From NCBI RefSeq assembly GCF_002105155.1, contig NW_019029011.1, positions 62,001-126,000 on the forward strand: a DNA stretch of 64,000 nt. Direction: 5' to 3'. This stretch comes from Lobosporangium transversale. Taxonomy: Eukaryota. The translations under genes were made by a program, and so were the position numbers. This document shows positions 9,374 to 45,897 of this stretch, piece after piece (position 1 is the first letter of the stretch; each line of letters opens with the position of its first letter). Below the pieces are notes generated by a model. It made no database searches, was not told the origin of the DNA, and worked only from the letters and a program-made list of their open reading frames with translations.

Positions 9374-10379
9374 GTTAAAGGATATGGTATATATATCAAT
9401 GAACAATGGGAGTTGCATTATGAGAACGGAGCCACACCGGTTGTTTCAGCCGCGTGATAAATCCTTTATTGCACAGCCACAAGCACTACCCTTGAACTCA
9501 TTCATGACTGGGTCCTGAGCACCAGGATTATTTTGACAAGGCGCTTCGTAAGTGCCAAAAGAGCTTGACTCTACGGGAAAACCCACTGTAGAACGTAGCT
9601 ATAAACCTGGATTAGTAGATGTGATCCAAAAAAAAGTCAACATTGCCATAAGTATTAGAAGAAGTATTAATAACAGTTCCGGAAGCACAGCGACACTGCA
9701 CATTGACCTTGTTTGGGATGGTCTTATATATCACATAAACAAAAACTACCATTAAGAAACATAAAAAAAAACAACCTGTCTCTTTTACCAGTGTTCAGAG
9801 GCAATGACATGCTAGAGATCAATTCAATGCTAGCAAAGGAGTTTTGGTCATGTTGGTGAAGGCTCTTAGACAAGACTATAAAGGGTACAAGAAGACTGCA
9901 AGGGCTCTGGAGTTGGACCAGGCGGTGGGCCATGTCAACAAGATTCGAAACGAGGGTCTCGAGCCTTGAGCTTATCGCCTACGACCAACAGGGTTACCTG
10001 TTGAGATTAACGATCAAACAGGTGGGTTCCGCCTGCAGCTGCTGGCTTTCAAATTCGGAGAAGTGTGTAAAGTTCAAGCGTCTTCATGGCTCGGCTCTAC
10101 CTTCCAAAATCACATCAACCCTTGGTAGGTCGATTATTAACCTTCATGGTCACCAAGTTACGGAAGCTCTGAGACTGCCCTCAGGAGATATCAATGTTTT
10201 AGTATTGGACCTGGGACAAAAGCCAGGCGCTGGTACGAGCGCTGACAGCTTGAGTTCCGGGAGCAAAGGTCGCCGTTGGGCCTTGCAGAGTCATAAGATG
10301 GATTTTTCGAATGAAACTATAAAAGGAGCCCAAGACACGCGATTATACACTACCTTTTTTTAACCCATTCCATTATTCA

Positions 10380-18570: not shown

Positions 18571-19057
18571 AATAGTTCTTTTCTCCTTGACAGGTGTGAA
18601 AGACGAATGGTTACTTTTTAAAAAAAAAAGTCACTTTATTTAGATGCATACTAAATTTTCTTTTTGACAGAACCTTCGTTCAAACTCATCACAAACGATA
18701 TCGGGTGCAAGCCTAATAATCAAGCAGCAGAACAGATGATACATGTGAGAATGCATTAGCATAAGCTTAAATAAAATAGATTTTTGTCATACGGATCTAT
18801 CTTATCACATAATATTGATAGTAGAATGTGAAAGCGTGAATTTGTCTTGAAAATCAATAACGAAGATCTGAAATATGAAGAAGTGATGGGGATGTGGAGA
18901 AAGATGGAAGCTTTTACAGATTTGCATCACTCTAATGTACAATGCTCCTCACCGTCAAAGGTCAAGCATGATTGCAGACTGATCTTTAACCGCAGCGTGG
19001 ATTTATCTTATTGGAGTATAGCACAAGTCTCTCAAAATACGTTAGAGGCGTAGCTTT

Positions 19058-20926
19058 CTATCTCGAATAGTGTATGACGTTTAGTGTGAACTGAATGATT
19101 GTCATCGTCCAAGGATAATTTCCATCCTTGTGTTGGCTGAATATATAGAAGTTGCTGTAAGTAGAGCAGATAGCCACGGACGATGTTAGCTATGTTGTGG
19201 CTATCACATCTCTGTACATAAATGCGCTGCACTTGGAGCAATAAAGCTAGTGGATAGTAATCTGTCCCACTTGGAGGAATATTATTCATTCAGGCTGACA
19301 ACTATGTAACCAAGCCGATTTGACCCGAAAGAAAAAATAAAAGTGGAGCGCATATATATACTGTTCAGATGAAGTATCTGACACCGGTAGCTGAAAACTG
19401 TTCAATGTACTGGCCAATAGCACTCTGGCAAGTGCGCTTGTTCTTCAAAGTATGGCAAATGACTTCTTGAAGGCAGATCTTAATTTTGGACCTCAATTGG
19501 GGCTTATCAATCAGTATTCTGTTTAGATTGCCATTAGCAGTTCCGATATCAAGAACTTAGTTCGGTGTTCATACTGCATAGCCCTGGTCAAGCCATTTTT
19601 ATCCATTTCGTCCACCGTTTTTCGTGGCTTTGTCGCCTTTTCCTTCTGCTTCTTTTGCTCGCTAGCAAGAGCATCTGCGTTAGAGTTGTTTTTTGCTCTT
19701 TCTACTGTATTGCTTTTTGACCTCTGGAGGAGCATGCTCGAGTTTTCGGGAGTCTTGAATGAATACCGCTCTCGACACTTATACTTCGTTCCTGCGGCAG
19801 AAGGAGGCTATTAGAAAGGAACTCGACCGATAGAGCGAAAGGTATTGAACGTATCTGAGCACTTGTTCTTCTGGAATGCAATGTCCATGTAAAGGTTGCA
19901 AAAGTGGGCTAGAACAACGGAAATGCAGGGGAAAAGGGATAAAGAGCTAGTACATTACCACGCCACCTTCTATTCAAACCAAGTACAGGAGTCTGAAGTG
20001 AAGCTGACAGGCATTTGCTTTGCTGTTGATCCACGGAAATCCGTATAGTGTCTTCAAAGTGCCTGTCAGCTACTCTGTTTCTCTTCACTTCATTGTCTCA
20101 CAAGGGTCTTATACAATGCTCTTGGGGTATTTTTTTTCTTTTTTTAAAAAAGAGGGACTTTAATATGATATCCAAACTTTTAGACTTTTTTTTATAGTAT
20201 GCCATTAATTTATCCATCCTTCTTCCTGGCAATTTCGTAGTTAGGGATGTTTCCAAGTCGGGCTGCCAGTTGCTCACTATGCACAGTACTGTTAGCTGAA
20301 CCCGTGTAATGCTCAGGGTGGCAAGTACATTTGTAAGCTTATACACCAGAATCACTGTCTCGAGGCACAATAACTTCGAGCTGGCAACCAGTCACAATAG
20401 CGACGTTTACTTGGAATTAACATTCTTGAGTAAGTCAGTTCTTGCTCCACAGGTGCTTCGCGAACAAATCTCATGCTTCCTTCGATCAGTGAAAGGCTTT
20501 ACCTATAATGCCTTTGTAATGGTCAAGAATTGTTTCTTTCAGATCCGACGCTTGCTTCCCACGCGTCAATCTGGCTCGTCGAGCCCTTCTTAAGCGTCTA
20601 TCAATGCCTTGGCTCGCACCTTCTCTCAGTGTATATGAGTAAGCCTTTTTCCCTCACAGAGGTCGCCACCGAGATAGTGGGCAAGGTTCCCAGGCGTTCT
20701 ATACCTCCCAGCCCTCTTTCCAGGATCTTGTAGGCTGTATCTAGGGAATGATTGGAGTATGCCCTTCGAATTATGGGAACTAAGGTTCCCGGGATATCGA
20801 GTCTGGTATAGGTGCTGTGGCTCAAGGAGTTGGAAGGGTTAAAGGTCGAGCAGGCTGATGCGTGGTAGTGAAGAGTCGTCTCGTAGCCTTCTTTAGAAGA
20901 AGAGTCCGAGGGCCCTCGATTCCCAT
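19058..20926 (-). mobile_element. Decayed, internally deleted gene with N-terminal FEN1/XPG (PIN-like) nuclease motifs and C-terminal TnpB/Fanzor RuvC-ZnF motifs
   Basis: Motifs occur in order on the minus strand. N-terminal part: MGIEG (ATG 20926), RLDIPGT, YLGG..EGKRLT...*EKVRAKAL (~20676-20610), QVNVAI...PRDSD (~20413-20351), QLTVLCIVSN and LGNIPNYEI. C-terminal part: LGYIVVSLNE*YSSK (19314-19270), VGQITIH*LYCSKCSAFMYRDVIA (19270-19199), HNIANIVRG and DGNYPW (~19126-19109). Many stops and frameshifts. Confidence 0.7.
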
Positions 20927-21595: not shown

Positions 21596-23950
21596 CTATG
21601 CAATGTCCGCCTCCACAAGTCTATCCATATCATATGCTGCAATGCACTCAAGCAAAATTTTGCGTTGAACAACCTCTACGCGCTTGCCTAGAGATTGTCC
21701 CAGTTCACGCATCGCCTTCACCTCCGTTTTAAGCTTTCTACTGCTAATAACTCCTTCTCCTGCTTGATCAAAGACGATAAGATGTCGCACAGTATTATTG
21801 TCGTTTCCATTTTCTGATGGTGGCGGCAATGTAGTGGCAGCTATCGACTTTGCAAACCGCATATCACGAAGAAAGAGTTGAGGCACAACTCTTCCTCCAC
21901 CTGCACGAATCATGAGCTCAATTTCATCTCTAGTGGGGTTACCGAATTGTCCAGAGAGCTGCATTTCGCAGCCGGCGAACAATGGAGGATCCTATTCAAA
22001 CGCAATAAAATAAAATAGAAATAACGGCAATTGATAAACTCGGTTGAACAAAAAAGCTGCATAAAGGGCTATCAGAACATAAACTTACCCCCTTGAGTTT
22101 ACTTGCCCGTGATTTCTGCGGTGCATTCGTTCCATACTCATTATTGTGGATCTGGTATCCGGTTTCGTCGACCCAATATCCAGCATTCATGGATGCAATA
22201 ATCCCTACAGGAAAGTAAAAAAGAGTATATGTAAGGGAGACTGGTAATGTCTCATTACGTCCTCAAACAAATTTAAAAAAATCCTACATTCAAATCGGAG
22301 AACCCAGGATGCCCGCAAAACACCCAGAAAGAATTTGACAGTCCTGCCACTACCACTTTCGCTTTGTGCTTGAGCTAGGGTGATGGTAGCGCAATTACCC
22401 AGGAAATAAGGTGTAAAGTCAGCAGTTGTAATAAATGGTAAAGCTTTGTCTTTGTCTTTTTCCATTTCCTCAATATTGCATACTCCAGCACAGACATACA
22501 TGTATCCATTACAACGTGTGTTGCTGGAGTTAAAAGACCATCAATAACTTTGGTCTTTAAGGCTTTGGCTGTATTCTCCATTTGTTGCTGGCCGAAATCA
22601 AATTGTTAGTGACCTAGCATTCTGCCTACATGGAGCCAGAACAAAGGCATGTCTTACTATTCTAAGAGGTACCTTTTTTTGAGCCGACATAAAGGTCGCA
22701 CATAGCTCAAAGTTTGTCTCTCTAGAAGGCACTTCTTGCGTTGGCATGCAGTCCAAGGCCGTCTCTTCTAGCACAGGTCGTTTCGGCTCTGGTTTTATCA
22801 TGGAATTGCTTTGTCTTGATCCGAATGAAAATGAATGCGAGTTATCGTCATCTACCTCCTGCTTCACTTTTGATAACGGCTCTTGATTTTGAGGGTGATG
22901 TTGCTGATAGTGGTGAAGCGGTTGTGGCCCTTTTTGAATTAGTGAGCTCGACACGGATGCTATAGTCGCTTGCACTGATGGCGAGGGAGTATCCATCTGT
23001 TCTAACACTTCCTTGTTAAGAGGAGTCAGTAAAACTAAAGACAGCATCCTCTCAGCCAACTGGGCTGCTTGCTCCGGGGAAATTGAATCGAGATCAACAT
23101 CGAAGGAATCAAGTTTCATATCCACGGTACTTTCTGAGCGGTGTGGTATTATTTCTGCCATCGGTTCGATTGTAGGCTCGACGGTGTTTGCGCCTTCTAT
23201 ATTTTCCGTATTAGCATTATGCGTTTCTGATTGTTTTTGTGGTTGCGGCACAGCGTTATCAGACCTCTCACTTTTTTCTGGATATGGAAACAGTTGTGAC
23301 AGATTATCCAGAGGAGCGGCGTCATATTTTCTTGGAGCCTGTGAAAGAGCTAGTAAGGTGATCATGTGGTCAACATTAAGAGTACAAATCATACATTAAT
23401 TTTTGGTGGCAAATCCGTTCAACGAAAAAAGTATGTCAAAATTACAGAATCCATCCTCATGTTCAAAGGCGGCCTTGAGCTGCATGAAACTCTCAATCAG
23501 ACGCTCCAGGTGCTCAACTTTATTGAGACTCCTTTTAGTAATATGGGTATTACAGAGCGGACATCCATCCTTACGATCCAGCGCACGCAGGATGCATTCA
23601 CGACAAAACGTGTGGTTGCAACCGGTCGACATAGGTTGCTCTATTGTTCCTAGACTACCAATAGCAGCAAATGAAGATACAATACATAAAAGATTAGTAC
23701 TATCCAGGCAGGGAATTGTATTCTTAGAAAGTAGGTGGTTGAGAGTATGAAATGCATCACACCAGATGGGACATTTGAATTCTTCTTGCATTCGACGAAG
23801 GATTTCATAAATGTTGTCTGGTAAAATCTCTTTCTCCTTATTCTCTTTTTGGTGCTGTTTGTGCTCTTCATCATAATTAATGTTGTTGTTGCCTTGAAAC
23901 GTGATCCGGCTGAGGCGTTTTTCGTCTGCTGCATCCATTGTGGGTCTCAT
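21596..23950 (-). CDS. BRCA1/BARD1-like protein: N-terminal C3HC4 RING and C-terminal tandem BRCT, about 7 exons
   Basis: Spliced RING MQEEFKCPICLGTIEQPMSTGCNHTFCRECILRALDRKDGCPLCNTHITKRSL; BRCT1 THVVMDT...RTVKFFLGVLRASWVLRFEW; BRCT2 PPLFAGCEMQLSGQF...ELMIRAGGGRVV. Confidence 0.88.
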
Positions 23951-29032: not shown

Positions 29033-31915
29033 GGCGATTAATGTGAGTATATAAAAACAATAAAATAAAACAAGAAAAGGGATGAAGGATGGTCGATGAG
29101 AAGAGATGGGTTTAGAACGCTAAAGAACGAGATCAAAATCATTGCGAGCATATAGCATAATAGTAGCCTTATCTACGACATCGGATCGCGTGGAAATAGT
29201 GATTGGTCAATTCATCTTCAGGAATTAAACTTCTCAGAACATGTCAAAGAGACTGGACAGACTAAGTCATCATTAATTCAAGCAATGTTGCGGGCAATGC
29301 AAGAATCACGATAGATGGCGATGCCATAACTGGCATTCCCACCACCCTTGTGTTCAACTTATATTGCTTTTTGTATTTTTCTTAATACAGAGCGGTTAAA
29401 TGTCATTATTATTTTTATTTTGTGCATCCCACCAAGATGTAGTCTTTGGACACGTTTCCGTCAACACCCTCATCCTGCTTTCGAGTAGGTAGAGGCCATT
29501 GGCTTGAATGTGGCCTTTGAGGCCCTGCTCTCAATATTTCTGGGATCATGTCATGAGTCATGTGGGAGAGCCGCAGTGGTATAGGTAAAAGGTTATGGCT
29601 GCGACTACTCTTGAGCCAGAGCCCTGATAGCCACTAGGTTATCGTGTCTAAAAAGCCCTTGAATGGTTGAGGACTGAAAGGTTGACGGAAGTCGCCGAGC
29701 ACTTTACGCTCAGTACTTCTCCATCTTGGACGTCTGTATGACGATGGAAGAGGTTAATCAGGAACCTTAATGACAATGATGGCTCAACATTAATATGTTT
29801 TTAGACGCTTTATATGTCGAAAAAAAAAAAAAAAAAAAAAAAAAAAAACGTTCAAGAAAGAAGATAAGCATGGGTAGTCGTTTTTCGTGAAGATGGAGCA
29901 TTCGAATGTGGCCTAATTATTTAGTAGTATGAGTAAAAGCGATATGAGGAAAGTGTGGCATAATTTGCAAGAGAGAAGTAGAACATTGCTTGATGGCTAT
30001 TAAAGTCGCGCATATTGTCATTGAGCTCTTCATTAGCGCAGTTACTGAAGCCATTAGCTTTATTGATTAATAATATGGAGTTTTCGACTTTGAGCGAGCA
30101 ACACCAATTCTTCTCTCGTTTTACGGGTATAGGCATTTATTTGCCTGAGCTGCAAATGAAACAAGGCTGCTTGGAACGACATCCAGGCCATTCGACGGTA
30201 GTAAAGCCCTGGGCAGAAACAGTTCAATTCGATTCATTGATTCCAACTGCTTCCGTCTAACGAGAGATACACAAGGCTGTCCAACTATGTACCCGGTGGC
30301 TAGTCTTTTCTCCATGATGTCCTAATGCGATTTGACAGATAATAGCGTTCCAGAACCACGTCAAAGCATCCATCAGTGGAATCAAAATACGATCTAGAGA
30401 ACAATGGTTGATGCAATTTCACGTTAGCCCTGGGTTATCGATGGAATGATGTAACAGCGAACTTCAATTCTTTCGAATTGTCAAGAGCCTCTCTACTTTT
30501 CCAGGTCAATATTGCCAAAAATAGCGAACTAGCCTCGAGTGATCAAGGCTTGAATCAGTTTTCCAATGCGAGTTCCTGAACTTCGGTAATAAAAAAAAAA
30601 GGTGATCCTTTCATTTATACCTGCCTATGTAGTTGCTTATGTCTACAACATGCTCTGTCAAGTCAGTGTAGGCCTTCATAACAACAGGGCAGATACGCTC
30701 AAAAATACCATGGCTCAGATCTCATTTTCTGGTGATCCATTGATGTTTACGCACCATCTTGCTAAAAAGCTAGTATACTTAGCGTATAGATTAATTTAAT
30801 CAGCCAGTAGCAGTTACAGGATTGCATGTACTTGGGATTGTATATTAATATTCTACTTAGCTAAGGGATATAGGCGACTACGAGGGTATGACAACAAATA
30901 GCAATAGAGGTAAATGACTACAGTGAGTGCTCTTTATTGTCCTTCGCGAACTAATGGGTCCGATGTTCCAGGCAAAGACGACGATTACGACCAGCAATAT
31001 CATTTATATGACGAAAACATGTCGAATAAAATAGACGATGATGAAGAAGGGAGCTTTCAAAGTATGGATCCTTTGTTCCCTCTTCGTATATACCAAAGCG
31101 ATGAGTACTGACTGGTTGCTTTAGGCTTTTTGTGTATGTTTATTCCTATTTTTCTTCTTGAAGAATCTCAATTATCGTAATAGTTGGAAATACCTGGCTT
31201 CAAGCACCAAAACCAATTCCAACAGCGCTAAACTACTCGTGTAATTGATACAACAACGTAATGGTTAAGCGCATAGCCATTTTACTTTGAATAGTATGAC
31301 TAGGAGTGGTTCTAGCAGCATCATAGTGGTCGGCAACGACGGAAGAGAGGAACGAGATCAACTATAGAAAGGATACTTTGATGATAGCGCAGAGAAACTA
31401 CACCCAGCACTACACCATAGACAACATCCCGATCCCAAGGGATACCACTCTCAGTATATGAACATGTATCAGAATGGCAACATTTTCTATAATGCTGCCA
31501 ACAACATAGAGAAGTATACTTATATGAACCCACATCAGCATGATAGCTGCATGGAGGGCGGCGTACTGCTTACCACAGCCCATGTCAGATCGGTAGCGTA
31601 AGTCCAGTCCCAATCCATCTATTCAGTGATAAGCCACGTGGTTCCAGATACAACGCTCTTGTGGATCAAAACCAGAGAACTGTGCTGTACGCTCTTTTTG
31701 GCTATTTGATTAGGTTTATTTAATGAAATTCTTGTGATTGAAAGGACCAACCAAAAAAGAGCGAATAGCACAGATTTCTAATCAAAACAAACACATCAGT
31801 GATATTGGTTCCTTAGTTTCTTCCTCTGGTATCCCTTTAATTTTCGTTATCCGTTGCGCCTCAACTTTCTTCCTAAATTGCAACAATAACAACACAAATC
31901 TAGACTGGCTACCTC

Positions 31916-45709: not shown

Positions 45710-45897
45710 CTTCCGTGAATGTATTCTTTTTATAATGAAATCTACTCTTTTTTATGTCGGTGAGGTCACCAAAGCCCTTAAATTTTGGATCACACCGAAG
45801 GGTATGTATTTGCAATACACTAAAATAAATAATAGTAATAATAATAATAACAATATCACCAATTTATTATTACTCTATATTCTGGCGAATGCAGGAG

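Follow-up and report, generated by a model that had tools for sequence, protein, structure and literature searches.

The closest described systems are the Fanzor1 nucleases and the fungal transposons that carry them. In Mucorales, Bao and Jurka 2013 (PMC3627910) reported MuDR-like elements (ROr-4, PBl-3, MCi-4) in which a Fanzor1 gene lies inside MuDR-type terminal inverted repeats (TIRs) without a MuDR transposase and which are flanked by 9-bp duplications; XPG, FEN1 and flap are not mentioned in the available text of that paper. Here we describe a 64,000-nucleotide stretch of Lobosporangium transversale contig NW_019029011.1 (the window) in which the minus strand holds the dead remains, with a large internal deletion, of a related gene. 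We consider it likely that its intact relatives, carried by transposons of the Mutator-like element (MULE) type and joining a FEN1/EXO1-type nuclease to a Fanzor1-type nuclease in one predicted protein, act as a cut-and-resect homing device. What is new is a Fanzor1 with a FEN1/EXO1 head, carried by MULE-type elements of Mortierellaceae fungi. The words "fusion" and "fused" are absent from the main text of Saito 2023 (PMC10432273) and "XPG" from its searched supplements, while the portions available of Jiang 2023 (including supplements), the Yoon 2023 preprint, PMC10691335 and PMC5751038 mention no such head. Literature listings yielded no description of a natural pairing of a FEN1-type nuclease with a Fanzor.

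The Mortierellaceae family resembles Fanzor1 (SpuFz1, GtFz1, PpFz1; PDB 8gkh, 9cer, 9cf1) in the RuvC D/E/D residues, the Glu before a C4 zinc finger and the fold, as far as the sources available describe them (PMC3627910, PMC10432273), and also in its carriage by TIR transposons, a 3′ end that is conserved and structured and leads into the right TIR, and its place on the FZ1 branch of Saito 2023. It differs by an N-terminal FEN1/EXO1 nuclease of 300 residues (about 1,150-1,300 aa in total), by introns at four shared positions, by a RuvC-I motif of the form D-[LAG]-G and by a target motif set 9-15 nt off the element end. Like the Mucorales elements it belongs to early-diverging fungi, but several of its copies carry a MULE-like transposase, and its Fanzor has a nuclease head. 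Engineered exonuclease-Cas9/Cas12 fusions (PMC13545839, PMC11869199) likewise tether a 5′ or 3′ exonuclease to an RNA-guided cutter with the aim of changing the repair outcome, whereas the Mortierellaceae fusion is natural and under purifying selection.

The relic in the window

All motifs quoted in the first-pass annotation of this DNA were located on the minus strand where it had placed them, from the ATG at 20926 to YPW at 19109. The neighbours it had named were recovered with Pfam: a gene with RING and BRCT domains (BRCT at 21596-21991) lies upstream and COG6 (COG6_C) downstream. Pfam matched no domain in the relic itself when three frames were read with stops as X, and a word-seeded protein search returned no match. 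A frameshift-aware alignment to a profile of 50 sequences, numbered on P0016 (1,186 aa), bore out the claim of a single collinear coding relic: it aligned with residues 33-505 and then about 1050-1132 with a score of 342, whereas eight codon shuffles reached 24-32, the reversed sequence 28 and the opposite strand 27. Of 543 aligned positions 199 were identical. A six-frame hmmsearch recovered the pieces in this order too, its lowest domain E-value being 3e-22. The parts, all on the minus strand, are as follows.

20212..20926, minus strand: relic of exon 1, the FEN1/EXO1-like 5′ nuclease head (P0016 residues 1-256; alignment and hmmsearch)
20135..20211 (limits approximate), minus strand: AT-rich remnant resembling an intron, at the first of the intron positions that the family shares (codon about 256)
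19967..20134, minus strand: what is left of exon 2, in which the FEN-like fold ends (residues about 257-309)
19909..19966, minus strand: GT...AG intron-like remnant at the second shared intron position
19380..19908, minus strand: relic of the basic linker and of the first stretch of the Fanzor part, residues about 340-505 in all
19326..19379, minus strand: deletion junction and pyrimidine-rich remnant of the last intron; residues about 506-1050 missing
19100..19325, minus strand: relic of the last exon, with the RuvC-II Glu codon ending at 19285, the second CxxC and the RuvC-III Asp codon ending at 19208
19014..19099, minus strand: decayed right end, an omegaRNA-like region and right TIR, the TIR ending at 19014 (weak by itself)

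The best-preserved piece, 19380..19908, reaches 79% identity over 56 aa to a Lobosporangium protein. The reading frame is broken by 13 stops and by 12 frameshifts, two or three of which coincide with intron remnants. Of the four intron positions common to intact copies, three still show intron-like segments, and the fourth lies inside the deletion. Because of these lesions, the loss of residues about 506-1050 and the intron remnants, we take the relic to be a genomic, dead, internally deleted copy. In the head, the equivalents of D35, K85, D182 and D184 are kept, while D78 has become G, R92 a stop, E163 Q and D165 N; D232 could not be resolved. The observation of both halves is confirmed, with one correction: the first-pass annotation had overlooked the deletion, which removed most of REC/WED and RuvC-I, and the loss of the first CxxC of the zinc finger. 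The rest of the TnpB/Fanzor C-terminal signature it had recognized (RuvC-II Glu, second CxxC, RuvC-III Asp) does survive, and the full set is present in relatives.

A second relic of the family lies at 9865-10246 (plus strand, score 108), just upstream of an F-box gene. It covers residues about 766-888 including the RuvC-I Asp, a part missing from the main relic. Being on the opposite strand and 9 kb away, it is probably a separate insertion.

Intact relatives of the fusion protein

A HMMER scan of 1.84 billion representative sequences with one frame of the relic (X at stops) gave six proteins, four with Mortierellaceae names; onward searches starting with these raised the number to 14 and later to 40, the intact proteins being 1,100-1,360 aa long. 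An organism is named for 25 of the 40, and all 25 belong to Mortierellaceae genera; since the onward searches depend on shared words, other fungi may carry the family as well. Among named proteins, those of L. transversale come closest to the relic. The Mortierellaceae proteins of this layout that the first-pass annotation had mentioned do exist.

Head and tail stand together in single predicted proteins in seven of the 17 sequences of alignment A2, and metagenome loci gave stop-free spliced gene models spanning both halves, with an aligner that disallows stops and can invent short introns. Purifying selection was found on both halves of intact genes. The head has a FEN1/EXO1 fold with seven acidic residues, the gateway Lys/Arg and H2TH, and its predicted active site is full. 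Each motif assigned earlier in the relic, in either half, falls on the homologous column of these relatives. EXO1 and FEN1 tie as best match in the structure search. Compared with EXO1, FEN1, XPG(Rad2) and GEN1, the head is only 15-17% identical, is multi-copy and transposon-borne, and is joined to a RuvC nuclease where those proteins have PCNA- or repair-factor-binding tails.

In the tail, the RuvC-I Asp (D877, in a D-x-G motif) is present in 13 of 13 relatives covering that site. The repositioned RuvC-II Glu E1063, just before the C4 zinc finger, and the RuvC-III Asp D1097 (RD motif) are each found in seven of eight; for the zinc-finger Cys the counts are 8/8 (C1070), 7/8 (C1073), 9/9 (C1087) and 8/8 (C1090). 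Foldseek with the predicted structure returned a Fanzor1-like fold. Placement in the Fz1 clade rests on the labels of Saito 2023, in whose supplement one of six accessions sought, P0031, is labelled FZ1; in file 3 of that supplement, at least 12 Mortierellaceae FZ1 rows have N-termini that look FEN-like by eye. At rows about 1269-1386 of the same file are more divergent Mortierellaceae FZ1 entries of up to 1,786 aa with a FEN-like start, which suggests several subfamilies beyond the one sampled here.

We conclude that the relatives are predicted two-nuclease proteins, with a FEN1/EXO1-type 5′ nuclease N-terminal to a Fanzor1-type nuclease, and that the relic, itself dead, leads to a natural family of two-nuclease Fanzors that is both large and live. 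The earlier reading of the relic as a dead fusion copy is supported. The outcomes that would have spoken against it did not occur: intact homologues possess RuvC-I and the fold, the halves do occur together in single predicted proteins, and profile and structure searches are significant for each half. The carrier was not part of that reading and was identified here.

The carrier transposon, its right end and its insertion sites

Near-identical copies diverge abruptly at both ends, and TIRs of 25-29 bp (92-96%) were found in six of 18 long loci examined. Locus L001 is a 7.4-kb element; upstream of its fusion gene, and in the opposite orientation, lies a spliced gene with pieces matching MULE and SWIM. 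The MULE matches are single exons with E-values of 6e-4 (L001) and 9e-3, SWIM in L056 is above its cut-off, and DDE-like motifs were seen by eye in the transposase-like gene. A MULE-like transposase gene stands beside the fusion gene in at least four element families. An N-terminal exon of this gene (L001 2464-3192 and L056 2275-2997, both minus strand) has a Cys...HxH pattern and no Pfam match; the pattern resembles that of WRKY/GCM1-type DNA-binding domains, and the exon is a candidate reader of the TGAC motif. Different element families adjoin or nest at L029 1-215, L001 7630-8904 and L007 320-485, and in L029 one GTGACG site is flanked by two elements, one per side.

After the stop codon, 34 distinct right ends carry a near-invariant GTGACGT 34 nt from the end. 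In 21 of them, picked as intact-looking and non-redundant, four of the six pairs of a 5′ hairpin show double-sided changes with 96% of cells paired, a signal exceeding all 500 shuffles and all slid controls. Each of the five right ends folded singly forms, in addition, a long stem that stops at the TIR (z -1.8 to -6.7), and Rfam gave no match in three loci. This conserved, covarying region has the look expected of a Fanzor1 omegaRNA, judged from the text available of Saito 2023. In the window the RNA model weakly matches 19014-19073, 95 nt past the last aligned codon on the strand of the relic; we take it as the decayed right end because of its position and not its score, and it no longer folds (z +1.44).

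Several other right-end sequences were seen. In L015 (2360-2460) and L066 (940-1011) the GTGACGT segment is duplicated. In the window, a solo right-end-like sequence at 29148-29202 (minus strand, RNA model E 6e-4), just upstream of a TCP-1 chaperonin gene, is a possible ghost element end; six-frame hmmsearch found no coding relic beside it. A remnant at 45765-45820 (minus strand, E 0.047), with the family 5′ hairpin and GGTGAC and without a TIR, is possibly an omegaRNA ghost.

On the left side, ACG ends 13-15 nt before the TIR in seven of eight secure junctions (background 3.6%, binomial p 7e-10, this interval having been selected after inspection of the data). A ninth junction, at a site shared with another, also fits; a tentative tenth, L034, has a weak TIR, does not fit and was excluded from the count. 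Among 36 distinct right flanks one has the mirrored motif. In families A and D the motif is GTGACG or CGACG and stops 15 nt short of the left end (4/4 junctions), and in families B and C it is reversed, CGTCAC, ending 9-10 nt before it (4/5 junctions). Most simply, the motif would be a site that a protein binds at a set distance from the element, its reader being the transposase or a host bZIP factor; the sequence resembles a cAMP response element (CRE) site.

A proposed homing device and its alternatives

The preferred reading of these elements as cut-and-resect homing devices would work as follows. The 3′ end may be transcribed as an omegaRNA, with the right flank as guide, and the Fanzor would cut alleles that lack the element or from which it has excised. 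The tethered 5′ nuclease could then resect the cut ends or trim flaps and excision footprints, so that repair would copy the element back via recombination rather than end joining. The GACG/CGTCAC site ahead of the insertion point would act as a TAM-like (target-adjacent motif) self/non-self signal on the left, one that the variable MULE target duplication cannot supply. According to a review (PMC13565253), the duplications made by MuDR diverge from one another, and in known structures the TAM includes the 5′ duplication. The upstream motif could explain, in a testable way, how a Fanzor comes to have a TAM although the target duplications of its transposon family vary; a candidate TAM and a candidate omegaRNA are at hand for biochemistry. 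If the head resects Fanzor cuts, it would be a natural counterpart of the engineered exonuclease-editor fusions and a direct test of an RNA-guided nuclease aiding a cut-and-paste transposon whose excision is not scarless. This significance lies in the intact family and the RNA and target-motif predictions, not in the relic.

Several observations weigh against this reading. The MULE Pfam matches score 20.6 and 16.9 bits, under the curated cut-off of 27.6; MULE remnants occur in only 15 of 80 loci, most of which hold little upstream DNA, and none was found in three loci whose upstream DNA spans 5-8 kb. No target-site duplication was seen in contigs whose left and right flanks are unpaired (L003 and L005 share the right flank and differ on the left), so that a 9-bp duplication could escape. 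Within the window neither a transposase remnant nor a left TIR was found, and the right-end match is not significant alone (8.1 bits, E 3.8, rank 7 of 13). Broken copies L046 and L053 also receive spliced models. The Fanzor part of the structural model is of moderate confidence only (TM to target 0.26-0.45), and RuvC-I reads D-[LAG]-G, not the DPG given for Fanzors in the available text of the Yoon 2023 preprint. Finally, a usual TAM adjoins the guide target, whereas this motif lies 9-15 nt from the junction and so apart from the would-be target.

The main rival, which we judge unlikely, is that the head serves transposition itself, opening or trimming hairpinned donor ends or insertion-gap flaps, with the Fanzor as its carrier to the empty donor site. 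It takes this rank because MULE excision passes through hairpins left on the flanking DNA, as reported in the accessible part of PMC5499845; the full predicted active site of the head and the adjacent transposase genes agree with it as well. However, the head is joined to the Fanzor and not to the transposase, and fusion genes without a detectable MULE partner are conserved too. An RNA-guided eukaryotic transposon, in which the fusion recognizes GACG together with some 15 bases paired to the guide, uses its flap nuclease on the target and brings in the MULE transposase for insertion at a fixed distance and orientation, would account for the exact 15-nt spacing in families A and D and for the confinement of the motif to the left side. 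We regard it as improbable: in this small sample none of eight left 15-mers has a match among the 36 right flanks, the best agreement at any offset being 8-10 of 15, and the reversed motif at 9-10 nt in families B and C fits a guide-free protein-bound site with fixed centre spacing.

It is very improbable that head and tail are separate products, of adjacent genes or alternative transcripts, joined by gene predictors. Many database entries do carry one half only, the linker (residues 332-425) is of low confidence in the model, and we count in favour of this view that no transcript was seen. Yet the same four intron positions recur, with the frame kept, in loci that are only 37-68% identical, L010 needs just those four introns, there is no intergenic gap, and the half-length entries stop at the shared intron positions, as annotation errors would.
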